A DNA stretch of 64,000 nucleotides from a virus (Duplodnaviria; Heunggongvirae; Uroviricota; Caudoviricetes), in the IMG/VR virus record IMGVR_UViG_3300019757_000006; one strand, written 5' to 3'. A model generated the notes under the pieces. It was not told the origin of the DNA and searched no databases. It saw only the letters and a program-made list of their open reading frames with translations. Each line of letters begins with the position of its first letter. Within the stretch, counting starts at the first letter, position 1. Both the position numbers and the translations under genes were made by a program. This document shows positions 400-63,991 of this stretch, in pieces.

Positions 400-418
400 A
401 AAATAAAAGGTATAAACA

Positions 419-2252: not shown

Positions 2253-2261
2253 AGGAAAGAA

Positions 2262-2723: not shown

Positions 2724-2746
2724 TATAAATATATTAAAGGATTAAA

Positions 2747-3930: not shown

Positions 3931-3992
3931 AATGAACCTAAAAAAGAATTGGATTATTATAAAGATAGACCAGAGGGTATGTGTGAAGAACA

Positions 3993-4250
3993 GTGGTTAG
4001 AAATATTTCTAGAACAATAATAAAATTAAAAGGAGAAATTATGACTGGTATTTTTATGAGAGTAAAAAGAAATGATGTAATGGTTAATTTAGAATTAGAA
4101 CATCTGACTGATAAGGAAAGAGAACATCTATTCAAAGATAGACCAAAAATGGAAATAATAAAATTTATGAATGGATTATGTAATTCAATTCAAGAAAAAG
4201 AGGACGCCGATTATAATGAACACTTTTTAGATTCGATGCATCAAGATTAA
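3993..4250 (+). CDS. hypothetical protein
   Basis: 85-aa ORF. The internal Met at MTGIFM is preceded by aaaaggagaaatt, so the true start is probably near 4041. Confidence 0.35.
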   Translation: MVRNISRTIIKLKGEIMTGIFMRVKRNDVMVNLELEHLTDKEREHLFKDRPKMEIIKFMNGLCNSIQEKEDADYNEHFLDSMHQD

Positions 4251-4259
4251 AGGAAAAAA

Positions 4260-5264: not shown

Positions 5265-5272
5265 GATTTAAT

Positions 5273-5773
5273 ATGAAAATTTCAATGATAGTAGCTTATG
5301 GAAACAACTGGGAAATTGGATTTGATAATAAAATGCTTTGGTATATTCCAGAAGATTTTAAAAACTTTAAGAAAATAACTAGTGGTCATTGTATTTTAAT
5401 GGGCAGAAAAACTTTTGAAAGTATTGGTAAACCATTACCAAATAGAACATCTATTATACTATCTAGAAAGCCATTTAATCAGGAAGGAACCCATTCCTTC
5501 ACTGATGTAGAAGAAGTAATAAAATTTGCGGAAGAGACCGGAGAAGAAGAATTATTTGTGATTGGTGGAGCTCAGATATATAAATTAATGATGCCTTATA
5601 TTAGTAAAATGTACATCTCTCATGTTGATTATTCAGCCGACGAAAACAATAAAGTAGATACTTATTTAGATCCAATTAATCTAAACGATTGGAATATGGC
5701 TGAAACTTGGTCTTTTTTATCAGTTGGTGAAACGCCAGCTTGGGATTTTAAAGTATATACAAGAAAGGAATAA
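5273..5773 (+). CDS. folA: dihydrofolate reductase
   Basis: MISMIVAY..N..IG..N.LPW, the LMGRKTFESIG..LPNR motif and FVIGGAQIY are typical DHFR. Adjacent to thyA, like T4 td/frd. Confidence 0.9.
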   Translation: MKISMIVAYGNNWEIGFDNKMLWYIPEDFKNFKKITSGHCILMGRKTFESIGKPLPNRTSIILSRKPFNQEGTHSFTDVEEVIKFAEETGEEELFVIGGAQIYKLMMPYISKMYISHVDYSADENNKVDTYLDPINLNDWNMAETWSFLSVGETPAWDFKVYTRKE

Positions 5774-15680: not shown

Positions 15681-15706
15681 TCCACAACCAATTTTCCTGT
15701 CGTTAT
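15669..15706 (+). terminator. stem-loop + TTTCCTGTCGTTA element on the topoisomerase stop codon
   Basis: ggttgtgg-tataat-ccacaacc hairpin; the topoisomerase stop TAA (15678-15680) sits in its loop. It is followed by aattttcctgtcgttattttt. Confidence 0.45.
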
Positions 15707-15740
15707 TTTTGGGTAATTTATATTATAACCACTCGGTTTA

Positions 15741-15797
15741 AAAACGTGATAGCTGGTCAACTATACTAAGCTATAGCTATCTTAAGCTAAGCTATTG
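15741..15797 (+). repeat. AGCTA-rich dispersed intergenic repeat, copy A
   Basis: aaaacgtgatagctggtcaactatactaagctatagctatcttaagctaagctattg. The reverse complement of copy C (41101..41163) matches it. Confidence 0.5.
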
Positions 15798-15807
15798 TAT
15801 AATAATA

Positions 15808-15870
15808 CTTTAGAATAAGTACATCAGAGTATAGATATATTATAATCAGATAAGATGATATAATTGAAAA
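15808..15870 (+). promoter_or_regulatory. conserved ~60-bp promoter-like block, copy 1
   Basis: ctttagaataagtacatcagagtatagatatattataatcagataagatgatataattgaaaa. Its 26-nt core agtatagatatattataatcagataa is identical at 34775..34800 and contains TATAAT-like hexamers. It lies ~160 bp upstream of gene 16027. Confidence 0.45.
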
Positions 15871-16026
15871 GTTATATTTTTTTATAGTCTATTTTTTGGC
15901 CCTGACGAGGGCATTATAAATACAATATTAAATATAAAAGGAGATCTTTTTTTATAGTTGTTAATTATTTTTTATAAATAATTAAACCGAGATTCGCGAT
16001 GAAAAAATTAAAAGGAGAGTCACACG

Positions 16027-39444: not shown

Positions 39445-40353
39445 ATGCCGAATCAAAATACGGAACAAGTTACAGGAACTACAAGAGGTGAGAAGATAGG
39501 AATAATTTCGCTAATACTAGCGGCCTTGGTTACGATTCAATTTATGTTTGGATTTATTATTATTAAAGAGGGTACTGCTGGTATTAAAATGAGAGGTACG
39601 GTTTATGTAAAAGAGCCAATGTTGCCTGGTTATAGATTCTTTATACCATTTTATGATATAGTAATAGTTATACCAACTAAGCCAATTATGTTGAATTACT
39701 CTAAAACTAAATTCAATGAGAAAGATACTAAATTATTAAAATTTGATAAAGTAATTGAGAGTTTAGATGAATTAGGAAATGTAGTAAAAGTAGCTATATC
39801 ATTTGAGGCAGTTGCTGTATTAGATCAAATGCCTACTATGTTTGCAAAAGATGGTACCTTTGACGCTGGTTTCTTTAAGAAAGTAGAAGATCCATTTAGA
39901 TCTGTAGTTAGAAATACTATAGCTGAATTTAATGCAAATACTATGCAAAAAAATAGAGCTGCTATTTCAAATAGATTAATCGCACGAATTCAAATATCCT
40001 TTGATAAAAATGAATACTTTGAACTAGTAAATAATTCGGTTAACTTAAAAGAACTTATTCCTTCGGATGCAGTTAAAAAGTTACAAGAAGAGGTATCTAT
40101 TGCTCAACAAAGAACATCAGTTAATAAAAAGAAAGCTGATAGTATGAGAGAATTAGCAAATGGTAAAGCAGATGCTATTACTATTGAAGCAAATGCTCAG
40201 GCAAAAGCAAATAAAGAATTAGCAAATAGTATTACTCCAGAGTTAATTGATTATATTGAAGCAACTAGATGGAATGGGGATAGAAGACATACTGTTGTAA
40301 ATCCTGGAAGAGATGGAGTTACTCCTCCAATTATAATTGGTGGTGACAAATAA
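39445..40353 (+). CDS. SPFH/band-7 (prohibitin/HflKC-like) membrane protein
   Basis: An N-terminal TM helix is followed by an SPFH-like core (GTAGIKMRG...), then an Ala/Gln/Lys-rich coiled tail (ANAQAKANKELAN). Confidence 0.65.
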   Translation: MPNQNTEQVTGTTRGEKIGIISLILAALVTIQFMFGFIIIKEGTAGIKMRGTVYVKEPMLPGYRFFIPFYDIVIVIPTKPIMLNYSKTKFNEKDTKLLKFDKVIESLDELGNVVKVAISFEAVAVLDQMPTMFAKDGTFDAGFFKKVEDPFRSVVRNTIAEFNANTMQKNRAAISNRLIARIQISFDKNEYFELVNNSVNLKELIPSDAVKKLQEEVSIAQQRTSVNKKKADSMRELANGKADAITIEANAQAKANKELANSITPELIDYIEATRWNGDRRHTVVNPGRDGVTPPIIIGGDK

Positions 40354-42124: not shown

Positions 42125-42481
42125 TTATTTTTTATCTTTATCAGTATCTTCGTCTTTACCTAATCCAGTTAATCTTCTAAATAGAATTGGTAATGATTTT
42201 TCAACTAGACCTAAAATAGGATAAGCGAATACAGATACAGCTCCAATTATTAGACCTTTATGTTGTTCTAAATTAGCTGGTATACTACTATCTACGATAG
42301 TTCCTAAAAAACCACCTATTGCAATGAGAATAAACATATGTTCCCAATCAAACTTAACTTCAGTTTCAGTTCCTTTTGCAAGTTCTTTTTCTTTAAGATG
42401 TATATAAATATAACTTACAAAACCACCAAAGATACTTAAGAGAAAGATTTTAATAGATTCCCAGTACTCAAGAGCCGTCAT
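42125..42481 (-). CDS. holin-like small membrane protein (three predicted TM helices, charged C-terminus)
   Basis: Hydrophobic segments IFLLSIFGGFVSYIYI, ILIAIGGFLGTIV and IIGAVSVFAYPILGLV. C-terminus KDEDTDKDKK. Two genes downstream of the M15 peptidase. Confidence 0.4.
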   Translation of the reverse strand: MTALEYWESIKIFLLSIFGGFVSYIYIHLKEKELAKGTETEVKFDWEHMFILIAIGGFLGTIVDSSIPANLEQHKGLIIGAVSVFAYPILGLVEKSLPILFRRLTGLGKDEDTDKDKK

Positions 42482-42501
42482 TTATATCTCCTTCTCTATT
42501 T

Positions 42502-43461
42502 TTATTGACATTTTGTAGTACAACTACCACATTCATTATCAACTTCGCGCTTTACTTTACAAACTTCTTCAAATTCGCATTTCATAACACTACATTCAAA
42601 TCTTTCTTCGTTATTTTCTTCTCTAAGAATATGAAATAATTTCTTATTCTCGTCTCTTGTATTAGTTAAGACCCTATTAATAAACTTACCTTTTCTAGGC
42701 TCTACTATATATTTTTTATAACAATAATCTACTAATATACTTAATATATATAACCCAATCATTAATTGAAAGGTTACTTTAATATAATCTACATGTTCCT
42801 GAATTTTTTCCATATTCTTTCCATGATTTACTAAAACTTCGTCCGATTGAACTCCCTGACAAACTTTTAATTGAAACGATTTTCCAGTTGCGCTTGGAAT
42901 ACCATTAAAACCTTTAGTACTATCTGGTAATGTAACACATACTAACCATTCATCTCTACCATCAAAATTATATTTAACCATATCTTCTGGTGGATTATCG
43001 ATTACCTTTTTTAAATGATTATCCCACGCTAGTTGCATTGAATGAGGATCCCCACCGAGTGGTAAAGTATGTTGAAATATTTCTTCGTAATTCCATTTTG
43101 GATGGGATAATTCTAAGTAGCTGGCAACGTCTTTACTATTATCGTAAAACATAGTACCGTCCCGAAGATCGATAACATACATATCTCCAGTTTTTCCACC
43201 TACATAAGAAACTCCATGTTCCGCAAATAATCTAAATAATAAATCTTCATCTATTTCTTCGTTATAATCTTCTCTATGAGTTTTTACTTCATATAAAATA
43301 CTATGACTTATTTGATTAACATTTCTCCAGGCTTGTTTTCTCCAAATCATTTCGATTTCGTATTTATTTATTTCATTATAAGTATTTACTGCGTCTCTAG
43401 TTTTAAATTCAGTAAAGAACATTAACAATATAGATAATAAAATAACTATTCTTAAAAACAT
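42502..43461 (-). CDS. membrane-anchored protein (N-terminal TM, Cys-rich C-terminus)
   Basis: MFLRIVILLSILLMFF signal-anchor. C-terminus CSVMKCEFEEVCKVKREVDNECGSCTTKCQ. Lies between the endolysin and the holin-like gene. Confidence 0.45.
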   Translation of the reverse strand: MFLRIVILLSILLMFFTEFKTRDAVNTYNEINKYEIEMIWRKQAWRNVNQISHSILYEVKTHREDYNEEIDEDLLFRLFAEHGVSYVGGKTGDMYVIDLRDGTMFYDNSKDVASYLELSHPKWNYEEIFQHTLPLGGDPHSMQLAWDNHLKKVIDNPPEDMVKYNFDGRDEWLVCVTLPDSTKGFNGIPSATGKSFQLKVCQGVQSDEVLVNHGKNMEKIQEHVDYIKVTFQLMIGLYILSILVDYCYKKYIVEPRKGKFINRVLTNTRDENKKLFHILREENNEERFECSVMKCEFEEVCKVKREVDNECGSCTTKCQ

Positions 43462-43937
43462 TAATATTTGCCTGGCTTTGCAGGAATTATTTCCAGGTGT
43501 GGTAGATCGTCAAAATTTTGATCAGTATAAACATCATCTGAATCCCAATCTAATCCTAATCTTACCTCATGTGTTATTTTTCCTTCTTTAAGAAGTCTAA
43601 TAGCACACCCTTTAACGATTCCCATCATAAAATAAAATCTATCCCCGTCTTTTATTTTACCACTAAAAGCATTAGTACCTTTTTTATAAGGCATTATATC
43701 AACTGCATACGAAACTAATTCATTATCCTCGTTTAGTTTACCCTGATGTTTACTTTTTCTATTAACACCATCCAGTTTACTTCTACCAGCTTTGAATAAC
43801 TTTTCCTGTTCTCGTTGAGTTCGTAAACCATCTATAACACTAAAATCATACATAATAATAGCCTCTTCTAGAATTAATTGTATATCTTTATGACATGTCT
43901 TTAAATTTTTAAGACTCTTTTTTCCAAATGAATACAT
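43461..43937 (-). CDS. peptidase M15 (VanY/L-alanyl-D-glutamate peptidase-like) endolysin candidate
   Basis: GLRTQREQEKLFKAG...SKHQ.G..AVDI...HEVRLGLDWDSDD...DLPHLEI matches the zinc D,D/L,D-peptidase pattern (SxHxxGxAxD ... WGGDW ... D.xHxE). Confidence 0.75.
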   Translation of the reverse strand: MYSFGKKSLKNLKTCHKDIQLILEEAIIMYDFSVIDGLRTQREQEKLFKAGRSKLDGVNRKSKHQGKLNEDNELVSYAVDIMPYKKGTNAFSGKIKDGDRFYFMMGIVKGCAIRLLKEGKITHEVRLGLDWDSDDVYTDQNFDDLPHLEIIPAKPGKY

Positions 43938-43946
43938 AATTTATCC

Positions 43947-44270
43947 TTAATCTTTATTTATCGCTTCCGGTTTCTCAGTTGCTTTTTTAGGTTCTTTTGT
44001 AATCCCCTCTAATTCTTCAGCACTAACATCATCTAATCCTAAAGCTTTTAATGCTTTAACTAATTTCTCTTGAGTAATACCATTTCTTTTAGATTTAGCT
44101 ACAGCTACTAAAATATCTTTAGCTGATTTATCAGAAACCCCATCTTTTGTATTTTTTACGTTTACTAACTTTTCAATCATATTTAAAATAACTAATCCTA
44201 CTGGACTTGATCCAGCAAGAACTTTAGCTAGCTTTAATATCAAAGGTAAAAATTTCATCAAAAAATTCAT
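43947..44270 (-). CDS. hypothetical protein
   Basis: 107-aa ORF with a hydrophobic N-terminal region. Confidence 0.45.
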   Translation of the reverse strand: MNFLMKFLPLILKLAKVLAGSSPVGLVILNMIEKLVNVKNTKDGVSDKSAKDILVAVAKSKRNGITQEKLVKALKALGLDDVSAEELEGITKEPKKATEKPEAINKD

Positions 44271-44331
44271 AATTTATCCTTTTATTTTATGTGTATATCT
44301 TTGTTCGTTTATATTATTATAGAAGAACTGA

Positions 44332-44901
44332 TTATAAAAATAAATCGTTTATTTCTTCTATAGTACTGGCAGGATTAAATGGTTGCATAAAAGGTAAAAC
44401 TTCTTCTAGTTTTACAAAGTTTCCGGTAATGATTAAATCATCCGCTTGCATTCTAAATGCTTCAATCTTATCAATTAATGATCTAATAGCTACTTGATAA
44501 GCTTCATGATTAGCAATAATTCGTTGATTCTCTTCTTCATCCCAAGAACCAGTTCCAGCTAATGCTCTATGGTACTTATCAATATATCTGTCTAATTGTA
44601 ACGGAGTATTCTTATATCCAAGAATCATATCGTTAACTTGATTTTGAGCAGCGTCGCATAAATACATTAAATCTTTTTTAGCTTCTTCCTGTTTATATTC
44701 TAACATAATTTCATTATATTTAATAACTATCATATCTACTGTTGGACATGTATCACAATTTGGAAGTACTTCTGGTACGATAATACTTCCATCTTCATTA
44801 TCATAAGTAATTATTTCTAAGTCAGGTACGAGTCTTCTAAAAGACTCTATTAATAAATCCTGATTTAATGCTTTGTCAAAAGGTAATATTGTATTTGCCA
44901 T
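44332..44901 (-). CDS. hypothetical protein
   Basis: 189-aa ORF whose start overlaps the previous stop. Confidence 0.5.
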   Translation of the reverse strand: MANTILPFDKALNQDLLIESFRRLVPDLEIITYDNEDGSIIVPEVLPNCDTCPTVDMIVIKYNEIMLEYKQEEAKKDLMYLCDAAQNQVNDMILGYKNTPLQLDRYIDKYHRALAGTGSWDEEENQRIIANHEAYQVAIRSLIDKIEAFRMQADDLIITGNFVKLEEVLPFMQPFNPASTIEEINDLFL

Positions 44902-45566
44902 TATAAATCTCCAATCTTATATACAGTAGTTCTCATTCTCATTTTAATACCATAATTACTATAAGCATCCGGAGTTCTACCTTTAAATCTCATAATGCTT
45001 TCAGTAGGTACTCTAACTATTAACATTTGAGAACCATTATTTCTTTCACCACCATCACCATAATTATTTTCAGATAAGTCCGCGATGTTAGTCCAAACAC
45101 CACCTTCTTTTTTAGATGTACTATCCATAATATCTAAACCACCTATAATTTCTAAGTCGTCTATAAATACTCCAAATTGTCCACCACTTGCTTTTTCTAA
45201 TCTTTTATTATTTTTAGTATAATCAAATGACTTAGAATGGGCATCTAAATAAATACAATATATTCCTCTATCTATAGGAAGTTCTTTGAGTTCTGACCAA
45301 GCAGTACTTCTTTTATATTCTCCATCCCACATATTTTTATATATAAGATCGTACACTTCATTATTATCTGTTCTTAATTCAATTGCAGCTATTTCTTCTT
45401 CTATAATAGTAACCATATCTAGAATTTCTTCCATCGTTGGATAAGAACTTACGCTATTACTTGTAATAGTTTCAGTTCTTTTATTATAGAAAATGTTTTT
45501 AGCACTTGGTCTAAGTCTTTTAAAGGCTCTTAATATAAGAGCCCCATCTATATTTTCATAATTCAT
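44901..45566 (-). CDS. fibre-tip-domain protein, paralogous to the C-terminus of the 1012-aa fibre
   Basis: About 150 C-terminal residues align with the end of 45577..48615: SGGQFGVFIDDLEIIGG...GGVWTNIADLSE...RTTVYKIGDL against EGSQFGAFIDGIDINGG...TGVWTNICSLEK...RTIIYKLADI. Confidence 0.6.
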   Translation of the reverse strand: MNYENIDGALILRAFKRLRPSAKNIFYNKRTETITSNSVSSYPTMEEILDMVTIIEEEIAAIELRTDNNEVYDLIYKNMWDGEYKRSTAWSELKELPIDRGIYCIYLDAHSKSFDYTKNNKRLEKASGGQFGVFIDDLEIIGGLDIMDSTSKKEGGVWTNIADLSENNYGDGGERNNGSQMLIVRVPTESIMRFKGRTPDAYSNYGIKMRMRTTVYKIGDL

Positions 45567-45576
45567 AATATTCCTT

Positions 45577-48500
45577 TTATATATCAGCTAATTTATAAAT
45601 AATTGTTCTGTTCTTAATTTCGACATCTGATTTATTACTTCTTATAGGTCTAGCATTAAATCTAATAGTAGTATTTTGCTCTACTCTTACATAGAATTCA
45701 GCACTACCAAAATTTCTAATACCAGCTTTTTCATCATAACCTTTTTCAAGAGAACATATATTAGTCCAAACACCAGTACTAATTCTATCATTAATTAATT
45801 GACCACCATTAATATCAATACCATCAATAAATGCTCCAAATTGAGAACCCTCTTGAACATTATCTGTAGTACTACTATCCATCTTAATTTGATAAACACC
45901 AGGCACTAATAAAAATGTATCTAATTCATACCAAATATTTTGTCCCCATAAATCTAAGTCCCAAATATTTTTATAATAAAATGTAGGTTCTACAATTAAT
46001 CCAATATTACTTTCTAATCTTAAATTAATATCTTGGATATCCGCAGCTCTAGCATCTTCTTCTATCGCTAATCTAACAGTTAATTCATTATCTTTAAAAG
46101 TACTTCTTTCAATTTCTTGATTAATCTTTTCATCTAGAGTTGTACTTGTTTGAGATAAAGTACTCCCTAAAGAATTAAGAGTATTTTCATTAATTGTAAT
46201 TTTAGCCTCTAAACCAGATTCAACTGTATCTATTTTAGCATTTAAAATAGTATCTTGGTTAGTTCTATTAGTCGTTTCTTCAGTAATAATATTATCAAGA
46301 AGTACTAAACTATTTTGATTATCTGATTTAAATTCAGAAACTTCATTATCTAATTCTGTAATAGTTTCAGTTAATACCATATTAGTTTTATTAACAGCAT
46401 CTGTTAAATTAGTAGGAGCATAACCATTTTCATCATTTAATGATTGCACAAAGTTTAATGTTCCATCATTAGCTTCTCTAGTACTAATTTCATCATCTAA
46501 ATTACCTTGAATAATATTATCATTATTAGATCTTTCAGTCGTTTCCTGATTAATAAAAGTATTTAAAGTTTCGATTTCATTAATTCTATTAGTAGTTTCC
46601 GCATCAAGATTGCCTTGAATTTCATTTAAAGAATCATATCTTGTTTGAGATTCAATTAATAAATTAGCGTTTGTAGCATCAATATTTTCCTGCAAGAATG
46701 AATCTCTAGATAAACTAGCTTCCTCGTTTTCCGCTATAGTTAAATCTTGTAAGCTATCGGCAGCTGTTCTATCGATAATTTCTTGAGCAAAACTATCTTC
46801 AATTATAACGCTTCTAGCATTATTAGTACTAACATACGAAGCGAAAGCATCATCATTTTCCTGATCTATATTATTAATTAAATTAACCATTTCAGCAAAA
46901 CTATCTAAGTCAGCAGAACTAGCAGCTAAGATACCATCTATTCTATTTTTCTCTACAGTAACTCTACCAGATAAAATTAAGTTCTCACTTTCTCTTGTTT
47001 GAGTCTCTAGAACTAAAGCAGCTCCAACAGAAGTAAGTTCGGCGTGTAATTCATCATCTTTATTTTCAGAAGCTAATTTATTACCCTCAATTACTGTTCT
47101 AATACTAGCATCTTCGTTAGTACTTCTAGTAATCTCATTGTTTAGGGATAAAGTAACATTATCTATACTATTCTGTCTAGTTGTACTTTCTAATTCAATT
47201 AAATTAGCTAAATTAATTTCTTCATTAGTACTTCTAGTAATTTCATTATTAATCTTAGTATTTAAAATAGTTTCTTCTGCAATCGCTCTTGATTTCTCAT
47301 TTGCGATATCTAATTTTCTAGCTTCGTTTTCTTGAAGTAAAGATAATTCTAAATCATTAATACTATCAGTAATAGCAACATCATGAGCTTCTCTATCTAA
47401 AGTTTCTTGAACAATTTTAGTATTTAAAGCTTCATCTGCTAATTCAGAAGTATCTCTTAAAGCAGTAATCTTATTATCTAAAGCTGTTTCAACTAAAGCA
47501 TTTTGTACTTTGAAGTTATCTAAATCTAACTGAATAGTTCCTTCTGATTCATTAGCTCTTCTAGCTTCTGTATTAATAGCATCAGTTAAGTTTTTAGGAG
47601 TAACTATATTATTACTAATATCTGTTTTATTTAATAAAGAATCAAATACTAAATTACCATCTTTTAATTCTCTTGTGTCCACTTCATTTTGAATAGCTTG
47701 ATTTATTTGAGTATCAGATGCATCTAATCTATCAATTTCCCCTTCTAGGATTAATTTCTCAGCTTGGAAATCAACTTTATCTAATTTTTGATTATCCATA
47801 TTTAACATTTCTGTATTATATGTAACCTTATCAACTTTAGTATCTACTAAAGATCTAATTTGAATAGCTTGAAGATTATTCTCACCATCAATTCTCTGTA
47901 CTTGTTCATTAACATAAGTAAGATCTGCTTTTGTATCGATAAAGTTTTGAATAAAATCATTTAATCTATTTAATATATTAGCCTCTGCTTGGATAGCTCT
48001 AATTTCTTCCGCTACAATTTTAGCTTCATTATTTTCATCAGCTAAAGTACTTCTACCAATTTCATTATCTAATCTAGTATTTAATTCTTGATCTTCTTCA
48101 GTTCTTACTTGAATCTCATCATTCATTTGAATTAAAAATTCAGTTGTATCTAAATTCTTCTCATCTAAATCAGAATTCAATTGAAGCATTCTATTTGATA
48201 ATTCATTAATATCAGTATTTACTTTATTAGTAAGACTTGTTACTACAGCTTCTAATTCTACTTTACTAGCTTTATCAGCAGTAAGTATGGCATCTATACC
48301 ATTAATATAAGTTCTTAAGTCTTGTAACTTAGTTTCTGCAACAGCTACATCCATCTTTGAAGTAGTTAAAACATCATCAGCTGCATCAATATACGCCGTT
48401 AAATTATCAGCTTCTATTTGTAATTCGGCTTTACTAGCTTTTAAATTATCGAGCGATAATATTCTAGCATCAAGACCATTAAACATTTCACTATCTTTTA

Positions 48501-48615
48501 AATCACTATAGTCTTTAGTATCTTGAATTTTAGTATCTGTCGATGCAATTACTTCAGAGGCTTTATTATCTATTTGTAGTCTAGTTTCTGCGCCTAGTTC
48601 GTTTAATAAACTCAT
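45577..48615 (-). CDS. tail fibre protein (long alpha-helical coiled-coil shaft with C-terminal tip domain)
   Basis: 1012 aa, about 850 aa of them low-complexity heptad-like N/T/E/I/L-rich sequence. The C-terminal ~150 aa is a globular domain shared with 44901..45566. It sits within the structural block. Confidence 0.7.
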   Translation of the reverse strand: MSLLNELGAETRLQIDNKASEVIASTDTKIQDTKDYSDLKDSEMFNGLDARILSLDNLKASKAELQIEADNLTAYIDAADDVLTTSKMDVAVAETKLQDLRTYINGIDAILTADKASKVELEAVVTSLTNKVNTDINELSNRMLQLNSDLDEKNLDTTEFLIQMNDEIQVRTEEDQELNTRLDNEIGRSTLADENNEAKIVAEEIRAIQAEANILNRLNDFIQNFIDTKADLTYVNEQVQRIDGENNLQAIQIRSLVDTKVDKVTYNTEMLNMDNQKLDKVDFQAEKLILEGEIDRLDASDTQINQAIQNEVDTRELKDGNLVFDSLLNKTDISNNIVTPKNLTDAINTEARRANESEGTIQLDLDNFKVQNALVETALDNKITALRDTSELADEALNTKIVQETLDREAHDVAITDSINDLELSLLQENEARKLDIANEKSRAIAEETILNTKINNEITRSTNEEINLANLIELESTTRQNSIDNVTLSLNNEITRSTNEDASIRTVIEGNKLASENKDDELHAELTSVGAALVLETQTRESENLILSGRVTVEKNRIDGILAASSADLDSFAEMVNLINNIDQENDDAFASYVSTNNARSVIIEDSFAQEIIDRTAADSLQDLTIAENEEASLSRDSFLQENIDATNANLLIESQTRYDSLNEIQGNLDAETTNRINEIETLNTFINQETTERSNNDNIIQGNLDDEISTREANDGTLNFVQSLNDENGYAPTNLTDAVNKTNMVLTETITELDNEVSEFKSDNQNSLVLLDNIITEETTNRTNQDTILNAKIDTVESGLEAKITINENTLNSLGSTLSQTSTTLDEKINQEIERSTFKDNELTVRLAIEEDARAADIQDINLRLESNIGLIVEPTFYYKNIWDLDLWGQNIWYELDTFLLVPGVYQIKMDSSTTDNVQEGSQFGAFIDGIDINGGQLINDRISTGVWTNICSLEKGYDEKAGIRNFGSAEFYVRVEQNTTIRFNARPIRSNKSDVEIKNRTIIYKLADI

Positions 48616-48643
48616 TTTATTCCTTTTCTTTTAATTACGGTTA

Positions 48644-48973
48644 CTATATAGTAACCGTTTCTTGGATTGAAGATCTAAAATCTTCTATCGTACCTAAATG
48701 AGTTTTAAATTCATCTATTTGCAATTGCATATCTTCTTTATGTAATTCATATTCTGCAACGAAAGTATTATAAGTAACCATAAAAGTAGTTCTGAACTCT
48801 TCTAAATCTTCAATTCTTTCTTTATTTTGAATATACTTACTATTTAAATCTAAATATACTTTTCCCATCTTAGAACCTAAGAAGGTAACTAAATCTTCAA
48901 ATCTAATACCATTAACATAACCAGAGGATTGTTCCTCGGGTAATGCTAGTAGTGCTCTAATTTCTTCTTCCAT
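48644..48973 (-). CDS. hypothetical protein between the two fibre genes (possible fibre chaperone)
   Basis: 109-aa ORF. Function inferred from position only. Confidence 0.4.
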   Translation of the reverse strand: MEEEIRALLALPEEQSSGYVNGIRFEDLVTFLGSKMGKVYLDLNSKYIQNKERIEDLEEFRTTFMVTYNTFVAEYELHKEDMQLQIDEFKTHLGTIEDFRSSIQETVTI

Positions 48974-48985
48974 AATCTTCCTTTA

Positions 48986-51900
48986 TTATATTACTGCTAT
49001 TCCCGCAGCTCTTAAAAATGCATCGTTAAATGCATCTTCATTCTCTGCAGTCAAGTTTTGTAAATTAGTATTTACTTCATTAATACTTTGTACTAAGTTA
49101 GTTTTGTCTACTGTATTTAAATCAGTTCTTACACCAACATCATCTTGAAGAGTTCCAAGAATTCCATCTAGAGTAATTAAACTATCTTTTAAACTAATAG
49201 CGCTATCAATAAATCTTGTTCCAGAAATATCTAAAGTTCCATCTGTTTCTAATCCAGTACTTAATCTATCTAAGTCAATATTACTTTGTAAGAAATTATC
49301 TTTCTCTTGTAAAGCTGTAATTAAATTTTGTACTAAAATTTTATTCTCTTCATAAGAAGCTAAGTTCGAAGCTATACTATTAGTATTCGCTGTAATTAAA
49401 GCTCTTAATGCAGTTTCTAAATTTTGTACTGTAAGGTTAATTGCCTCGCCTAAATCAATTCTAGCTTGTACTTCTGTACTTAAATTTTGAGTAAGAGTTA
49501 ATAACTCTGCATCATTATCAGTACTTTCAGCTTTTAAAGCATCATCTAATAACTTAATACTATCTTTAATACTTGTTGATGTAGCTGTATAAGCTCTCGT
49601 TGCATCTGCTAAATAAACTCCACCTACTTCTAATCCAGTACTTGAAATAATTTCAGTAATTGTATTAGTAATATCAGTATCATTAAGATTTACATAATCA
49701 ATAAGTTCTTTAATACTATCTAATTCTAAACTAGTATCGGCTAAGATACCATCTACTCTAGCAGTAACATCATTAATCTTAGTTGTTTGATCAGCATCAG
49801 TTAATAATATAGCAGCTATTTGCTCATTAATAATACTATCAGCATTTGCTCTTTCAGTTATCTCATTATTAAGATTAGTCTCTAAAACATCCTCAGCTGT
49901 ACTAGCTCTTTCTGTCTCAACTGCAATCTTTTGATCTATCTGAATATTTAAAGCTGTTCTATAAGCTTCTGTAGCTAATTTGGTACTTGTAATATCAGTT
50001 TCAATATCTTGTATTGAAGTTCTATTATCAGTAACTCTAGTATCTATAGCATCAATTTGAATATCTCTAGCAGCTTCGAGGTTTCTTATTTCAGCTCTAA
50101 TAGCAGTCTCTTCTTGAACAGCTCTATTAGTCTCTGTTGTATATAACCCAGTTGCATATTCTCTAGCTTGTTCTACATCTACAATTAATTCATCAACTCT
50201 TACACCAGCAGTAGTAATTCTAATCTCTTGCTCATCTGTAATAGCTTGGAATTTATCATTTAATAATTGTTCCGCAGCAATACTTCTAGCTTCTTCTTGT
50301 GCAATTCTTTCATCAGCTACTATTCTAACATCTACCATTAATCTATCAAAGAATTCGGCTTCGTTAATTTGAATAGGTATTTCGATTCTACCATCTTGAA
50401 TCATAGAATCAATAGTCGAAACTATTTCAATTTCTAGTACTCCTAGACTTCTAACCATAGAGTTAATTGCATCAGTTGTATTAGTTAAATGGTCTCCATT
50501 GATATCTTTTAACTTATTATCAAATATCATATCTCCATCAAATTGCTTTCTTTCTGCAATTTCTAAATCAAGTTTTGTATTAATACTAGCATCGTTATTA
50601 TCAACAATTTCAGTTAAATCAATAATACTATCTTTAATAACTACTTCCGCAGCTAATCTTTTAATATCATTTGCATTAATTTCTTCTCTAATACTATCTT
50701 CTTGTACTAATCTATTTTGAATTTCTGCATCAAGACCTGTACTTAATTTAGTATCTAAAGAGTTAATTGCATTACCTCTTAATTGTACTTCTAATTGTAG
50801 CTTTTGAGCTAAATCTAAAATACTAGCAACTCTTGCTTGAATTTCATTATCGATATTATTATTTAATAGAGTTCTAACATCATTAATATGTTCTTGTCTA
50901 TTAATTATCTCTGCACTAATTCTAGAATCAACCCCATCTATATGAGCATTAATTAAATTAGTATTCTGATCTAATTCATTTAATAAAGAACTTTGAATTT
51001 CGTTTCTAGTAGTTTCAGCATTAATATTATTAGTATTTACTAAATCCATTAATGAAGTTTCTAATTCATTTAAATTATTAGTCCATGTATCACTTCTTGT
51101 TTCTACCATTGCAGTTAAGTTAGCAACCGATGTAGATACAGTATTTTGTACACAAGCTAAAACATCATTTTCTCTATCAATATTATTTAAGATATCAACA
51201 ATATCTTTAAATTCTGCTAAGTTAATATCAGTTCCCGCTAAAATAGCTTCTGTTTGTTTAATAACATTATCAATTTTAGTATTTAAAATATTATCAGAAA
51301 CACCTAACTCTACTTTAATTCTATCAATTTTACTATCAACTATTCCAATAGCTAAAGCTCTATCCGCAGTTTCTCTTACTATCTTATTAGTAACAACTGT
51401 ATCTCCAGCAATTCTATTTGTAGTTTCATTTGCTAAGTTACTTCTATCAGTTTGGATCTGTAAATCTCTAGTACTAATTTCTTCATTTATTTTTTCAGTA
51501 AGAAGTTGAACATCTAATATTCTTTCTTCTGTTTCTGTACTAATTTTATTATTAGTACTTTCAATAAATGTTAAAAGACTTGTTTCTAAAGTTTCTAAAT
51601 CATTTCTAAGAACATTATCAACCGCACTTAAAGTAGCAACTTCTAATACAATACTATCTTTAATAGTAGTTTGCTCATTACTTAAATCATTAATTAAAGC
51701 AGTTAAACTATTTGTACTAGCATTTAAGGTATTTTGTAAATCAACTTGAACAACTTGAACTTCATCTCTTACTACTTGAACTTGAGATAATCTATCTTGT
51801 ACTTCTGTACTAATTAAAGCATTTAAAGTACTAATATTATTAGCTCGTGCAATAGTTTCATTCATAATTAAACTATTAATTACTGAATTCTGAGATAATC

Positions 51901-54900
51901 TTTCATTTGTCTCTGCCGTTAAATTAGTAGTTAATGTAGTAAGACTTGCATTTACATTACTTGCAAAGTTAGCAATACTTCCTTCTTGAGTAATATCAAT
52001 ACCTTTTAATAATTCTACAATCGCCGCATACTCTGCATAAGAACTATCTACTCCATTAAATATAAGTTGAACTATATTATTTACTTGGTCTACATTATCT
52101 TGAACGGCTTGAGTTGCTTCAATTCTAGCTTGAACTTCATTTCCTAAAGCTTGCTCTAAAGAGGCATTACTTGTATTTAAAGCTTGAATTACTTCTAAGT
52201 TTGCGATATTTTGAGTTTCTAAACCTGCTTTAGATAAAGCTAATTTATTATCCATTAATGCATGTAATGATTCAGTATTTGCTTTTTCAGCATCCATTCT
52301 TGCTAACGTATTAGTAATTAATGATTCTCTTAAAACACCTTCTTGTTCAATTCTTGCTTGTAAAGTTCTTTCACCTGCTAATGATATCTCTTTAGCATTT
52401 TCAATATTTTCTAAACAATTATCAAAAGCTGTACTTCTATCTAGAATTTCAGTTCTAATTAAATTAGATAATTCTATATTTTGAGTACTTCTAGTATCTT
52501 CTTCAATACTTAATCTAGCAGTTAAATCATTTTGTACTTCTAGTATCTTAGTATTTAATGTACCAATGTTTGTATTACTTAGAGTTTTATTTAAATCAAT
52601 CTTATCAGATAATTCTTTAAATGAATTTAAAGAGTTTGTACTATTTGCTAGTATACTATCTAAAGCAATTTTATTAGCTTGAGCAATACTATCAATTCTT
52701 TGATCGTTCGCAATACTTCTATCAATTTCTTCTTGAATCTTATTTCTTAATTCATTAACTTTTGATTCTCTAAGAGCAGTTTCTGCATCAATCTTAGCAG
52801 TAAGTTCAACTTTATCAGCTGCTGTTTTTGTATCTAACTCAGTTAAGTTAGTACTAATTACATCACCTTGATTAATTCTATCTTGAATCTCTGTATTAAC
52901 AATTTGCATAATTTCATTATTTCTTGCTAATCTCTCTTGAGTTTCTAAAGAAATGCTTGTTGCTAGCTCACTATCTCCAGCTAATCTATCATTAATTTCA
53001 TTAAGTACAACTTGTTCTAAACTTGCTACTTGAGCTAATCTAGCTTGAGTTTCTTCATCAATTTTAATATCAGTAGCTTCTTGTAAAGTATTTCTTACTT
53101 GAATTTCATTACCAAGAGCATCACTAAGACTTTGAATAGCAGCAATTCTAATATTAACTTCTGTATTAATACTTAATTCTAAACTATCCATTCTTGCATT
53201 AACACTAGCATGAACTGTATCTAAATTATTTTGAGCAAGTGAAATACTAGCTTCTAATTCATTATATACATTTAAAAGAGTTTGTTTAGTTAATGGAACA
53301 CCATCAATAAAAGCATTAAAGTTATTTTCATTTTCAATTATTTTTGCATCTAAGATTTGGAAATTATCAATAACAGTAGCATTAAGTACTGTAAGGCTTC
53401 CCTTAATTTCATTATCAACATCTACTAATTCATTATGAACTGTATTTAATTCTGCTCTAACAATACCTAAATTCTCAGTAATCTTTACACTTAAACCATT
53501 ATCGCTATCTTTATATTTAGTTTCAACTCTATTTAATTCTAAATTAATTGTACTAATATTTTCAGCAATACTATTAAAAATCTCTACTAACTCAGCTGCT
53601 TTTGCAGTAGTCGTAGCATCAATTCTTGCAACTTCATCTAATCTAGTTTGTACTTCAGCTAAAATTCTAGCATCGATTTCAGTAATAGCATCTTCTCTAA
53701 TACCAATTTCAGTATCTAATTTAGCATCAATTCTAGCATCTTCAGCTTCTCTATCAGCAGCTTCTTCTAAGAAACTATTAGTAGTATTAGTTCTTAATTC
53801 TCCAAGACTAGTTAATATACCATCTAGGGCAGATTCTTTCTCAGCTTTTAAATCATTTACAAAATCAATAACTTCTTTAAAACTATCTAAATCAAAATCA
53901 GAACCAGATAAAATTGAATCAATTCTAGCTTTCTCAATATTTAATAAGTTTAAAGTATCTAAATCTTGTTGGATTCTTTCCGCTGTTTCAGTAATTAATC
54001 TTTGATCTAAAGCATTATCATTACTTAATCTTTCATCTGTTTCAGTATTAATCTGAGTTCTAATTTCAGCAACACTTTCATTTAATAGTTCAGTTGTACT
54101 ATCAATTCCAGCTTGTACTAAATCCATTCTAGTATTAATCGTGCTTATAGTTTCATTAACACTATTTTGTAAAGCGTTATTTTGAACTTCAAAAGCATTA
54201 ATCTGTTCTTGAATACTTAATTCAAGATTACTCATATCTTGTTGTCTAGCAGTTGTTTCTTCAGCAATATCTGTACTTAAAGCAGTTAACTGAGAACCTA
54301 TACTATAATTTAATGTATCAATTCTTTCATTGATTAATAAATATTGACTTTCTCTTGTTTCAGATTCAGAATCTAATTTACCAGATAATTCAGCATTCTT
54401 TAATTCTAAATTATAAACTCTTACATCTAAAGCATTAGTCGTATTTTGAATATCATTTATAGTAGCTACATTTAAAGCTAAGTTAGCAGAATTAAAATCA
54501 TTAATTAAAACTTTTAAAGAACTTATACTATCCGTTCCAGTATTAGTACCATTAATTAAATTAATACCATTTCTTAACTCTTGAATACTTGCATTTAAAG
54601 ATTGAACTTCAGTTTGTCTAGTATCAATTTCATTAGTTAATCCTAATTGTATAATACTATGTTTATCTAAAATACTATCATTAAGACTAGTTACTTGAGT
54701 ATTTAAATCAATTTTAATATTAGTAACCGCACTTCTAAGACTTAGAATATCATTATAATTCTTTAAAATATCAGCTTCATATTCAGAAATACTTGATGTA
54801 ATTATAGCTTTTTCATCTTCTGAAAAGTTACTTCCATCTAAGGTACTACCAAGAACCTTTTCTTTTAATTCTCTAAAGCTAGTATTAATATCTTGAACAT

Positions 54901-56437
54901 CTTTAATTCTAGTAGCAATTTCAGTATCTAATTTTAAAGTTAAATTTGAAACAGCGGCTTCTCTAATATTTTCTTCAGTATCAATTCTACTAATATTATT
55001 TACATAATTTAATTGGAATTTATCAGTTAATAATTTAAGATCGTTTTTAAGTTCTACCTTAATACCATCCATTCTATTACTTAAAGTTTTAAATGTTCCA
55101 GCACTTTCATCAACAGCTTTAGTTAAAGAAATAATATCATCAGATTTATCTACTTCACTTATTCTATCATAAATTTCAGTAATCTCATTTGTAATTCTAA
55201 GATCTAAAACCTTATTATTATTTTCTCTAAGGTCAGCTTCAGCTTCTATTAAATCAAATACTTTTTGATATTCAGAACCTAGAGTCCTATTTATACCAGA
55301 AATTAAATCAGATAATCTTAAAATTTCATTGTTAGTCTTCTCTTCAAATTCTATAACTTCATTTTTAATTAATCCTAATCTCTCTTGAGTATTCCCTTTA
55401 AGTAAGTTAATCCCTTCATCTAATCTAGTTACTTCTTTATCTCTAGTACTTATTTCATCAAATGTAAGATTTTTAGCATCTTGAATTTGATCTTGAATAC
55501 CATTATCAATATCTTGTACTTTAGTCTGTACTTGATTTAATAAGAAAGTAGCCGATTGAATAGTTCCTTCGAAGTCATCAATTTTAGATACTAAAGAACC
55601 TAAGGCAGTTGCCCCATCACTTGAATCTAATTCAGCTAAAATATTTAACTTTTCTTGGAAAGCATTTGTATCTAATAAAAGAGTATTTAACTTAGACTTT
55701 TGATTTTGTAAATCTAATTGTAAAGTATTAACTTCGTTATTTACAGTACTAAATTTTAAATTAATATTAGAATTAAGGCTAGCATTAGTTAAATCTAATT
55801 TAGTATTAAATTCTTCTTTAGATAATTTAGAATCTAAAGCAATATTTAAATTTTTACTTTCATTATTAATTTTTGTATTTAAAGTATTATCTAAAAGGAT
55901 TCTATTTTCTCTTTCTGTTTGGATTAGATTAATAATATCTTCTGATCTCTCGATATTATGAATACTTGCTTCAACAAGACTCAACGATCCGGATAATTTT
56001 TGATATTGATATTCTAAATTGTTTTTAATTTGATGAATACTAGCAGAGTTTGTTTCAGTAGTTGTATTAGTACTTTCTAATTTTGCTTCAACAACATCTA
56101 AATCTTTTAATATATCATCTTTTACTTCATTAATATAGTCTTTATTATCATTAAGATTATTAATAGTCCCCAGAACTTCTTGAACAATTAATGTTTCTAT
56201 TTCCGTTCTTGGAATTACATTAGCTTCTACAGCTAATTGTTCTATTAGATTTCTTAGTTCTTCCTGTGTTTGAACTCCAGCGCCAGTTGCAATATCTTCT
56301 ATATAACTTGTTATGTCAGCTTTTGACATTACTCCTGCTTCTAAAGATAATTTTTTAATATAATCTTTTATATCTTGAACAGTTAACCCACTTAAAGGTA
56401 TTACATCTAAGTTAGTTAATTCATTTTGATCTGCCAT
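48986..56437 (-). CDS. giant fibrous structural protein (2483 aa, almost entirely coiled-coil/low-complexity repeats)
   Basis: Single uninterrupted 7.45-kb ORF. Periodic N/T/I/L/E/D/Q composition with recurring ETxxRxxxD and IxxNxxxL patterns, similar in style to the 1012-aa fibre shaft. Confidence 0.7.
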   Translation of the reverse strand: MADQNELTNLDVIPLSGLTVQDIKDYIKKLSLEAGVMSKADITSYIEDIATGAGVQTQEELRNLIEQLAVEANVIPRTEIETLIVQEVLGTINNLNDNKDYINEVKDDILKDLDVVEAKLESTNTTTETNSASIHQIKNNLEYQYQKLSGSLSLVEASIHNIERSEDIINLIQTERENRILLDNTLNTKINNESKNLNIALDSKLSKEEFNTKLDLTNASLNSNINLKFSTVNNEVNTLQLDLQNQKSKLNTLLLDTNAFQEKLNILAELDSSDGATALGSLVSKIDDFEGTIQSATFLLNQVQTKVQDIDNGIQDQIQDAKNLTFDEISTRDKEVTRLDEGINLLKGNTQERLGLIKNEVIEFEEKTNNEILRLSDLISGINRTLGSEYQKVFDLIEAEADLRENNNKVLDLRITNEITEIYDRISEVDKSDDIISLTKAVDESAGTFKTLSNRMDGIKVELKNDLKLLTDKFQLNYVNNISRIDTEENIREAAVSNLTLKLDTEIATRIKDVQDINTSFRELKEKVLGSTLDGSNFSEDEKAIITSSISEYEADILKNYNDILSLRSAVTNIKIDLNTQVTSLNDSILDKHSIIQLGLTNEIDTRQTEVQSLNASIQELRNGINLINGTNTGTDSISSLKVLINDFNSANLALNVATINDIQNTTNALDVRVYNLELKNAELSGKLDSESETRESQYLLINERIDTLNYSIGSQLTALSTDIAEETTARQQDMSNLELSIQEQINAFEVQNNALQNSVNETISTINTRMDLVQAGIDSTTELLNESVAEIRTQINTETDERLSNDNALDQRLITETAERIQQDLDTLNLLNIEKARIDSILSGSDFDLDSFKEVIDFVNDLKAEKESALDGILTSLGELRTNTTNSFLEEAADREAEDARIDAKLDTEIGIREDAITEIDARILAEVQTRLDEVARIDATTTAKAAELVEIFNSIAENISTINLELNRVETKYKDSDNGLSVKITENLGIVRAELNTVHNELVDVDNEIKGSLTVLNATVIDNFQILDAKIIENENNFNAFIDGVPLTKQTLLNVYNELEASISLAQNNLDTVHASVNARMDSLELSINTEVNIRIAAIQSLSDALGNEIQVRNTLQEATDIKIDEETQARLAQVASLEQVVLNEINDRLAGDSELATSISLETQERLARNNEIMQIVNTEIQDRINQGDVISTNLTELDTKTAADKVELTAKIDAETALRESKVNELRNKIQEEIDRSIANDQRIDSIAQANKIALDSILANSTNSLNSFKELSDKIDLNKTLSNTNIGTLNTKILEVQNDLTARLSIEEDTRSTQNIELSNLIRTEILDRSTAFDNCLENIENAKEISLAGERTLQARIEQEGVLRESLITNTLARMDAEKANTESLHALMDNKLALSKAGLETQNIANLEVIQALNTSNASLEQALGNEVQARIEATQAVQDNVDQVNNIVQLIFNGVDSSYAEYAAIVELLKGIDITQEGSIANFASNVNASLTTLTTNLTAETNERLSQNSVINSLIMNETIARANNISTLNALISTEVQDRLSQVQVVRDEVQVVQVDLQNTLNASTNSLTALINDLSNEQTTIKDSIVLEVATLSAVDNVLRNDLETLETSLLTFIESTNNKISTETEERILDVQLLTEKINEEISTRDLQIQTDRSNLANETTNRIAGDTVVTNKIVRETADRALAIGIVDSKIDRIKVELGVSDNILNTKIDNVIKQTEAILAGTDINLAEFKDIVDILNNIDRENDVLACVQNTVSTSVANLTAMVETRSDTWTNNLNELETSLMDLVNTNNINAETTRNEIQSSLLNELDQNTNLINAHIDGVDSRISAEIINRQEHINDVRTLLNNNIDNEIQARVASILDLAQKLQLEVQLRGNAINSLDTKLSTGLDAEIQNRLVQEDSIREEINANDIKRLAAEVVIKDSIIDLTEIVDNNDASINTKLDLEIAERKQFDGDMIFDNKLKDINGDHLTNTTDAINSMVRSLGVLEIEIVSTIDSMIQDGRIEIPIQINEAEFFDRLMVDVRIVADERIAQEEARSIAAEQLLNDKFQAITDEQEIRITTAGVRVDELIVDVEQAREYATGLYTTETNRAVQEETAIRAEIRNLEAARDIQIDAIDTRVTDNRTSIQDIETDITSTKLATEAYRTALNIQIDQKIAVETERASTAEDVLETNLNNEITERANADSIINEQIAAILLTDADQTTKINDVTARVDGILADTSLELDSIKELIDYVNLNDTDITNTITEIISSTGLEVGGVYLADATRAYTATSTSIKDSIKLLDDALKAESTDNDAELLTLTQNLSTEVQARIDLGEAINLTVQNLETALRALITANTNSIASNLASYEENKILVQNLITALQEKDNFLQSNIDLDRLSTGLETDGTLDISGTRFIDSAISLKDSLITLDGILGTLQDDVGVRTDLNTVDKTNLVQSINEVNTNLQNLTAENEDAFNDAFLRAAGIAVI

Positions 56438-62719: not shown

Positions 62720-63991
62720 TTATATTATATAAACTGGATTAAATGGTAAAAACACAGTACCATTTAGATTTTGTAATATATTATCACCGACCATAGCAAG
62801 TTGGTGATTTTGTGTTATATCCATAGAAGTAACATTAGTTAATTCGGGAACTTCCACAAATCCTCCAGAACCATTTGTTTTAATTACAGTACCATCTTCT
62901 CTTTGTAAAAAAGTAATTGTTTTATATGCCCAACCAGTTTTAATATTAGTCACTAATGGATCTAATATATCTTTTTCATAATTCTCTTTCTCTGTATTAT
63001 AATAGATAGTTGTAGAGTCAAAAACATACCCAATAGTTTTAACACTACCATCATTAAAAATAACTATTGTTCTCCGTAAAGAAGAAATTATATCTTTTAC
63101 ACCAGTATATAGAAGTTCATGTACTGTATTATCATTTGCAAAACCATTATATCTTTTACTTCCACAAGAGTATAATTCTCCTAAATCATTTAAAATAAAA
63201 GTAGCATCCCGAGAATTTCTAACCTTAACAGCATTATTAATATTTGGAATTAAAGTTAATTCTGGAGTTGGAACAGTTGTATCTAACCCATGACTATATC
63301 CCAAATTTCTACCGCACATCCAAACAGTACCATCCTTTTTTATAATAGATAAATCGTATTGGGAAAAATGAGCATATTTAATATTATTTATACCAGTATT
63401 CTCTAAAGTGTTTACATCGGAAACAGTTGAAAATTCAGTTCCCAATCCTAATCTACTATTACCATTATCCCCAGCTACATGTAAATAACCAGCAACATCA
63501 ATAATTGCTAAAGTCTTCACGTAACTATCAGTATCTACAAATTTACTAAATTTAGTACCTCCATTATATTTAATATAATCAGTACTTAAACTTCCGGCTA
63601 CGATAGGAAATCCTTGAATTAATATCTGATTATTTCCATATAAATCACCATCTTTTATTAAAAAATTATTACTTCTATTTAATTGAAATAATTGCACATT
63701 TTTTAAATCGTCTAGTACTGTTTTACCATTTTCTTTATCTCCAATAGAAATTAATGGGTTACCAATATCTGGTGGAATTAAGTTACCATCTACATCTGTA
63801 TCTCCAAAAACAGTAGGAAGTACTAACGTAACTGGATTACCCCATCGGTAATCTACTACAGTAATAATTGGTAATAATGATTTATTCGAATCGAATTTCT
63901 CATCTGCTTTAGCTTGAGCTACATCGATAGCTGTAACATAATCTGGAAGAGCTGTATCAGTAGTAATAATTAATTCATATGTATCAGTCAT
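62720..63991 (-). CDS. hypothetical structural-block protein
   Basis: 423-aa ORF with an ATG at 63991, 9 nt inside the window edge. Gly/Asn/Thr-rich and beta-rich composition. Confidence 0.5.
   Translation of the reverse strand: MTDTYELIITTDTALPDYVTAIDVAQAKADEKFDSNKSLLPIITVVDYRWGNPVTLVLPTVFGDTDVDGNLIPPDIGNPLISIGDKENGKTVLDDLKNVQLFQLNRSNNFLIKDGDLYGNNQILIQGFPIVAGSLSTDYIKYNGGTKFSKFVDTDSYVKTLAIIDVAGYLHVAGDNGNSRLGLGTEFSTVSDVNTLENTGINNIKYAHFSQYDLSIIKKDGTVWMCGRNLGYSHGLDTTVPTPELTLIPNINNAVKVRNSRDATFILNDLGELYSCGSKRYNGFANDNTVHELLYTGVKDIISSLRRTIVIFNDGSVKTIGYVFDSTTIYYNTEKENYEKDILDPLVTNIKTGWAYKTITFLQREDGTVIKTNGSGGFVEVPELTNVTSMDITQNHQLAMVGDNILQNLNGTVFLPFNPVYII

Follow-up and report, generated by a model that had tools for sequence, protein, structure and literature searches.

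A second copy of a fibre knob joined to an accessory-type N-terminal domain directly downstream of a putative phage fibre gene

The distal knob of a putative fibre is encoded twice in a stretch of 64,000 nucleotides from a virus of the Caudoviricetes (IMG/VR record IMGVR_UViG_3300019757_000006; this whole stretch is referred to as the window), once at the C-terminus of a fibre protein of 1012 amino acids (aa) and once on a separate protein of 221 aa, s221, the gene of which follows directly downstream. The two copies are homologous and diverged, carry different signature motifs and are both under purifying selection. The N-terminal domain (N-domain) of s221 does not stem from the fibre. As judged from profile comparisons, it is homologous to that of the next encoded protein, t189 (189 aa), with which s221 appears to be translationally coupled, and this fact, absent from an initial annotation of the DNA, is the most informative one at the locus. 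We tentatively favour a reading in which s221 would be a small trimeric protein that serves as a second, functionally distinct binding head of the adsorption apparatus and is recruited via its N-domain, probably to the distal fibre.

Two paralogous knobs and a shared N-terminal domain

The elements concerned are the following:

45577..48615, minus strand: gene for the 1012-aa fibre, with a long repetitive shaft, very few prolines and a C-terminal knob
45580..45975, minus strand: fibre-type knob, fibre residues 881-1012 (BLASTP E=1e-19 against s221)
45571..45576, minus strand: ribosome-binding site AAGGAA, 4 nt before the ATG of s221 and within the 10-nt gap past the fibre stop codon (direct reading)
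44901..45566, minus strand: s221, a separate 221-aa protein with N-domain, neck helix and paralogous knob (open reading frame, ORF)
45435..45566, minus strand: N-domain of s221, residues 1-44, helix and beta-hairpin with a conserved YPT motif (AlphaFold2: helix 8-18, strands 23-28 and 33-37)
45351..45434, minus strand: neck of s221, residues 45-72, an amphipathic helix leading into the knob (AlphaFold2: helix 45-68)
44904..45350, minus strand: knob of s221, the s-type paralog, residues 73-221 (signature loops DPDGGQFG and RTPDxDxGGI)
44899..44903, minus strand: TAATG, in which the stop codon of s221 and the start codon of t189 overlap (direct reading)
44332..44901, minus strand: t189, a 189-aa accessory protein with a small alpha/beta N-domain and a helical bundle (AlphaFold2: predicted local distance difference test, pLDDT, 81)

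Residues 76-221 of s221 align with residues 881-1012 of the fibre at E=1e-19 (BLASTP with compositional matrix adjustment), 51 of the 146 positions (35%) being identical. Homology of the two distal domains had been proposed in the initial annotation, and it survives composition-adjusted statistics; the motifs quoted there (QFGxFIDxxxIxGG, GVWTNI, RF and RTxxYK) all fall within the alignment, and both ORFs are found on the minus strand where they had been placed (45577-48615, 1012 aa; 44901-45566, 221 aa). The copies are diverged as had been claimed, the figure of about 40% identity given for them being too high. The N-terminal parts of s221 and the fibre, described as different, are indeed unrelated by BLASTP. 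A profile of the family matches fibre residues 845-1012 with E=1.5e-60, and since the matching part of the profile (positions 44-213) thereby begins some 35 residues beyond the knob on the upstream side, the copy probably takes in the last helical neck segment as well. When a hidden Markov model (HMM) of the domain is compared with all 351 six-frame ORFs of the 64-kb window, it finds exactly two knobs, those of s221 and the fibre.

The genes for s221 and the fibre do not share a reading frame. A fusion of s221 to the fibre by frameshift or read-through was considered and rejected on account of these different frames and because the s221 frame is open for only seven codons upstream of its ATG; the spacer between the two genes, 10 to 62 nt long depending on the relative, also speaks against such a fusion.

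By profile-profile comparison, homology links the N-terminus of t189 with the initial ~45 residues of s221 (hhalign E=9e-6, probability 83%), the score of 30.0 comparing with 9.8±2.4 in column-shuffled controls, none of which (0/100) reached it. In reciprocal HMM comparisons across the 351 ORFs of the window the two N-domains are each other's only match below 0.01, and no further ORF of the window bears an N-domain of the s221 type. The predicted structure of t189 (strands 3-7, 32-34 and 39-43, helix 14-24 and helices from 55 to 186) features the same helix-plus-hairpin N-domain as s221. In every relative the end coordinate of the s gene is identical with the start coordinate of the t gene, and this conserved TAATG overlap points to translational coupling of s221 and t189. 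Neither protein matches Caudo_TAP (PF02413), TfaMu or Pam3 gp25 in sequence (Pfam, PHROG, NCBIfam and PDB sequences). An XkdW-like N-domain was considered and discarded as it is unsupported by any Pfam or PDB match.

With regard to the origin of the two parts of s221, the most distant member of the family (P0009; E=4.5e-10) provides a second context. It is encoded in an unrelated phage contig, L007 (ena:ERZ27262648:k141_182751, region 1-5565), where the s-type knob rides on an N-terminal anchor of ~55 aa common to two proteins that resemble receptor-binding proteins (RBPs) and have other C-termini; one of the proteins sharing the anchor matches a tail-fibre PHROG (E=2.4e-12) and Laminin_G_3. 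This context indicates that fibre-type proteins use the knob as a portable module at their distal end. Interspersed among the RBP-like genes of L007 are three paralogous genes for helical accessory proteins, one of them directly following the knob gene. Their products are homologous to the helical part of t189 (E=7e-5), and their N-domains match that of s221 (hhalign E=3.8e-5, a score not reached in 100 column-shuffled controls); no match to the RBP anchor of L007 was found for the s221 N-domain. From these homologies of N-domain and knob, s221 emerges as a chimera in which an accessory-type N-domain is joined to a fibre neck and knob. The parts are separate and adjacent in L007 and fused in s221, and by the logic of domain fusion this suggests that they interact.

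Distribution, age and predicted fold of the knobs

The knob family is very rare. When 1.84 billion representative proteins were searched exhaustively with a profile, only five family representatives emerged, and two short contigs were found in JGI metagenomes. Relatives are absent from IMG/VR (profiles of s221, t189 and P0009) and from a scan of GTDB genomes, and tblastn with s221, the fibre, t189 and one L007 accessory protein gave no match among 50,697 GenBank phage records. When s221, the fibre, t189 and the products of neighbouring genes were compared with Pfam, PHROGs and NCBIfam, none of the fibre-block proteins was assigned to a family.

In the relatives that were found, the arrangement is constant. 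In seven of seven related environmental phage contigs, the fibre gene is followed in turn by s (213-221 aa), t (187-192 aa), an ORF of ~100 aa and endolysin, the fibre upstream ends in the same knob module in every relative, and the s221 ORF, on whose presence in relatives the initial annotation had made its proposal depend, is intact in each of them. Orthologs of s221 (P0002-P0005 and P0007) are 47-50% identical overall and those of t189 51-57%. When the five to seven lineages are compared, identity amounts to 55-74% among s-type sequences, 44-61% among fibre-type sequences and 32-47% between the two types. The paralogs thus cluster by type and not by genome, so that the duplication is older than the split between these phages, in agreement with the earlier statement that it is not recent, and the copies have not been homogenised. 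For the closest pair of genomes (L006 and L010), nine synonymous and one non-synonymous differences were counted in the s gene (ratio of non-synonymous to synonymous rates, dN/dS, 0.03) and 11 and three, respectively, in the fibre knob (dN/dS 0.07). Both knob copies are therefore functional coding sequence under purifying selection, and together with their separate signature loops (see below) this points to two retained, different functions.

These data bear directly on the proposal that s221 serves as a silent cassette, or an alternative tip, to be swapped into the fibre by homologous recombination, site-specific inversion or mutagenic retrohoming by a diversity-generating retroelement (DGR). 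The position just downstream of the fibre tip recalls the S-S' segments of Mu and P1 and the VR/TR pairs of DGRs, as generally known. The two copies lie in the same orientation, are not homogenised across lineages and share no useful identity at the DNA level, and the s221 gene is complete, having a ribosome-binding site and an ATG to itself and an extra N-domain, and is under purifying selection. Recombinational switching, one of the possibilities raised in the initial annotation, is thus extremely improbable. With regard to specific mechanisms, an invertible segment of the Mu G or P1 C type (Gin/Cin) was rejected in view of the common strand and of inverted repeats that reach at most 28 nt at 71% within 44300-48700, and a DGR in view of a DNA likeness between the copies limited to 59 nt at 71% and one stretch of 18 nt at 94%, at a protein identity of 35%. 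Among the neighbouring genes scanned, none encodes an invertase, recombinase or reverse transcriptase.

A model of s221 was obtained with AlphaFold2 from an ortholog alignment (mean pLDDT 72.8, with three loops of low confidence) and consists of the N-domain (helix 8-18, hairpin 23-37), a long helix (45-68) and an eight-strand beta-sandwich (73-219). The knob is predicted to form an eight-strand jelly roll resembling trimeric knobs of the C1q/TNF type at the level of the fold: the model features a compact antiparallel eight-strand beta-sandwich of ~130-150 residues placed C-terminally on a rod, and at E<=0.1 neither the s221 nor the fibre knob matches any Pfam family in sequence, C1q and TNF included. 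Fold neighbours include the trimeric knobs of fibres and spikes such as PRD1 P5 and the CBD of a cyanophage short tail fibre; unrelated jelly rolls (microvirus capsid, GOLD, PirA) score equally well. The likeness to PRD1 P5, BclA and the C1q family is accordingly one of fold, and s221 would be a trimer by analogy.

The two knob types are distinguished by characteristic motifs. The s-type signature comprises DPDGGQFG (reading GGQFG in the window copy of s221), WTNIADLSE..GGERNNG and RTPDxDxGGIKMRMRTTVYK, and the fibre-type signature EGSQFG and ARPIxxxKxxVE. When the s-type motifs are placed on the predicted topology by the up/down alternation of strands, they would lie in the 3-4, 5-6 and 7-8 loops, on the face opposite the neck and beside loops of variable length, which is the picture expected of a ligand-binding apex.

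The difference in surface motifs is also relevant for the idea that s221 is produced late in infection as a soluble decoy or to block receptors, which would bring about superinfection exclusion or shield progeny from being trapped on cells and debris. A small, free-standing protein with a binding domain, encoded beside a lysis cassette, would suit such a role. Since the knobs of s221 and the fibre differ in their surface motifs, the same receptor is not expected for both; neither a signal peptide nor a lipobox is present in the N-terminal sequence of s221, and the sharing of the N-domain as well as the coupling with t189 would be left unexplained. A decoy function is therefore very unlikely.

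Possible functions of s221 and t189

According to the reading that we favour, an ancient duplication would have placed a second neck and knob on the small, independently translated s221. This protein would form a trimer of N-domains, a short coiled-coil neck and knobs, and its N-domain would dock probably on the distal fibre, because in solved complexes of fibres with their chaperones such N-domains grip a TNF-like distal domain. t189 would act as an assembly chaperone or as a transient cap for one or both knobs. By its predicted architecture and by analogy we take t189 for a chaperone or cap and for a better chaperone candidate than s221. The favoured reading draws on the conserved, distinct apical motifs, on selection acting on both copies and on L007, where an s-type knob is carried by a fibre anchor.

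Several observations weigh against it. The presence of s221 in the particle is something that we infer indirectly, and the designation of its partner as a tail fibre is one that we infer from the adjacency of lysis genes and a T4-like gene order; recognisable tail or baseplate genes are found nowhere beside the block, including 10 kb upstream. Belonging to the accessory type and not to that of the L007 RBP anchor, the N-domain of s221 would suit a helper protein equally well. Mean identity among the s221 orthologs is highest in the knob (60%) and lower in the N-domain (43%) and the neck (40%, the lowest value), the reverse of the conserved anchor and variable tip usual for RBPs. Finally, when the two knobs are compared within genomes, 249 identical residues are counted as compared to 236±5.5 upon reassignment among genomes, a weak excess that was reached in none of 44 derangements. 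It hints at a direct coupling of the knobs that two independent heads would not need, and may be due to micro gene conversion, a shared partner or direct contact. Examples are a variable column with arginine in both copies of the window, serine in both of L001 and lysine in both of L008, and the sequence QFACF in both copies of L006 and L010. Mirror-tree correlations of candidate interacting parts in five genomes were dominated by shared phylogeny and did not discriminate.

Among the roles listed in the initial annotation, which made no choice between them, a tip-mimicking chaperone and an adapter are possible. As a non-structural, client-mimicking chaperone, s221 would grip the nascent fibre end with its N-domain, its neck and knob would trimerise the chains, and the protein would then leave. 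Its neck and knob would here stand in for a helical trimerisation bundle and align three fibre chains in register. Such a function is in line with the affiliation of the N-domain to accessory proteins instead of RBP anchors, with the location of the gene directly behind that of the fibre, with the weak covariation of the knobs of one genome and with a conservation of the knob above that expected for a receptor-binding tip. It also follows a two-part logic established for Pam3 gp25 and TfaMu, in which an N-domain binds the fibre and a C-terminal module trimerises (PMC9608196). On the other hand, a better candidate, t189, is already there and coupled to s221, the s-type apical motifs and variable loops, which the fibre knob lacks, would be needless for a pure trimerisation scaffold, the same type of knob occurs on a fibre-type anchor in L007, and no link in sequence or fold to known chaperone families was found. 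We consider a client-mimicking chaperone, the main rival of the favoured reading, somewhat doubtful, and the register-setting role of its neck and knob doubtful to the same degree.

In the complex of Pam3 gp24 and gp25, the small N-domain of the chaperone binds the TNF-like distal domain of the fibre and its C-terminal helical bundle trimerises (PMC9608196). TfaMu is described as similar to Pam3 gp25 in the same article, which cites North et al. (2019). In both systems the helper gene lies downstream of the fibre gene and encodes a small N-domain and a C-terminal helical bundle, a layout that is also predicted for t189, and no sequence similarity to the proteins studied here is detectable. Neither system has a counterpart of s221, in which the window lineage has a further helper-type N-domain, joined to a copy of the client's own knob. 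The glycine-rich domain of the Pam3 fibre is absent from the fibre described here.

N-domain and knob may, alternatively, be a binding pair that was duplicated and fused. Either the N-domain of s221 would sit on the fibre knob, giving a knob-on-knob extension of the tip with t189 capping the outer knob alike, or s221 would be a chaperone that uses a copy of its client's knob as a trimerisation module. This view appears unlikely. If true, a knob-on-knob tip or a chaperone with a client knob would represent an undescribed way to build or fold a phage fibre tip.

The tip adhesin gp38 of T2/S16-type phages and the gp38 chaperone of T4 are encoded right after gene 37, ahead of the lysis gene t. Like these, s221 is small and encoded immediately downstream of the fibre and beside lysis genes in what appears to be a distant relative of T4, and like gp38 of T2 and S16 it may act as an adhesin at the fibre tip. 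In the gp38 adhesins, hypervariable segments accompany a glycine-rich polyglycine sandwich; these adhesins lack homology to the tip of gp37. s221 differs in being a predicted jelly roll that is paralogous to the tip of its own fibre and in having no PHROG or Pfam match.

Instead of being recruited to the long fibre, s221 might be an independent short fibre anchored elsewhere (baseplate, neck or head) and serve a second step of adsorption, as in adenovirus F40/41 or T4. The distinct knob signatures and the purifying selection on both copies would agree with this, as would the mini-fibre layout of a helix followed by a knob and the fold neighbours PRD1 P5 and the cyanophage short-tail-fibre CBD. 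However, the N-domain is shared with t189 and accessory proteins, a recognisable virion anchor is lacking, no other ORF of the window has such an N-domain, and the tight coupling to t189 suggests joint action. An independently anchored short fibre is thus quite unlikely. Tandem genes for a long and a short fibre with paralogous knobs are known in HAdV-F40/41 and fowl adenoviruses (e.g., PMC8156859; PMC11337035). The parallel lies in adjacent genes, very different protein lengths and diverged paralogous knobs presumed to bind different receptors. The adenovirus fibres, from an unrelated virus lineage, share an N-terminal penton-binding tail, whereas the N-termini of the proteins compared here are unrelated and that of the short one is derived from an accessory protein.

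Cassettes of several RBPs with a shared anchor and exchangeable distal domains occur in CBA120, phi92 and Klebsiella jumbo phages. L007 fits this scheme with its knob on a shared anchor. The window lineage does not, as one copy of its knob is borne by a long fibre and the other by an accessory-type N-domain. Phages with several RBPs, portable distal domains and fibre chaperones encoded downstream are well known. We could not match to any described system a conserved, free-standing copy of a fibre's own knob that carries the N-domain of an adjacent, translationally coupled accessory protein. Distal fibre domains, together with the helpers responsible for their folding, determine the host range of phages. 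If s221 is located at the fibre tip or acts as a template for its folding, this would be a new route of tip building in which a helper domain is fused to a copy of the domain that it handles, and the compact unit of knob and docking domain could be used for engineering binding heads. If s221 is simply a second RBP, the phage would be one more with multiple RBPs, in a lineage without annotated relatives of the fibre block.

The fibre block and its genomic surroundings

The minus-strand block runs in the order 2483-aa gene, 109-aa ORF, 1012-aa fibre gene, s221, t189, 107-aa ORF, endolysin, 319-aa protein and holin-like protein. Two of its features lie upstream of the fibre gene:

48986..56437, minus strand: giant fibre-like protein of 2483 aa without a knob, opening the fibre block (ORF)
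48644..48973, minus strand: conserved ORF of 109 aa separating the two large genes (three orthologs with a mean identity of 62%)

Residues 1-875 of the 1012-aa protein hold two prolines, and five families of internal DNA repeats (D1-D5) were found in its gene. The 2483-aa protein has four prolines in total, and shaft repeats are common to both proteins (E=4e-11). The low proline content, the internal repeats and the common shaft repeats fit long helical rods for the two large proteins, and on the strength of sequence character and gene context 'fibre' appears a reasonable label for the 1012-aa protein. In three relatives (L001, L010 and L011) the ortholog of the fibre has ~1810 aa as compared to 1012 aa in the window, so that the length of the shaft is highly plastic while the knob is retained. 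The 109-aa ORF is kept in every relative covering the region, has no family match and may encode a connector or helper.

The lysis cassette (42125-44270, minus strand) directly follows t189. It is composed of the 107-aa ORF, an endolysin (match to phrog_465, E=5e-25), the 319-aa protein with a hydrophobic segment at its N-terminus and a cysteine-rich C-terminus, and a holin-like protein of 118 aa. Endolysin (74%) and holin (81%) are the best-conserved genes of the block.

The window is part of a contig of 224,699 bp with a GC content of ~28%. The large and medium subunits of a topoisomerase II are encoded at 12388-14304 and 14304-15680 (plus strand); they are of the T4 type, their best identity to proteins of cultured phages is only ~32%, and the nearest cultured phages are Vibrio nt-1-like and Aeromonas phages. 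Judging from such sequence features, the source is an uncultured jumbo phage on a deep branch within the T4 superfamily.

Among the remaining genes, one at 22902-25544 (plus strand) encodes a double AAA+ protein of the ClpA/ClpB type with 880 aa (AAA_2, E=6e-64; ClpB_D2-small; phrog_4871, E=8e-213), and an SPFH/Band_7 protein is encoded at 39445-40353 (plus strand). In the relative L010 the Band_7 gene is adjoined by a gene with a GGDEF domain (15429-16022), a domain that was not detected when neighbouring ORFs of the window were scanned. A protein with RCC1 repeats (WD40_RLD) is encoded upstream of the fibre block, at 62720-63991 (minus strand) of the window, and also at 8313-9842 of L014; the gene is cut by the edge of the window, its product comprising 423 aa from the first ATG in the window and 509 aa on the source contig.

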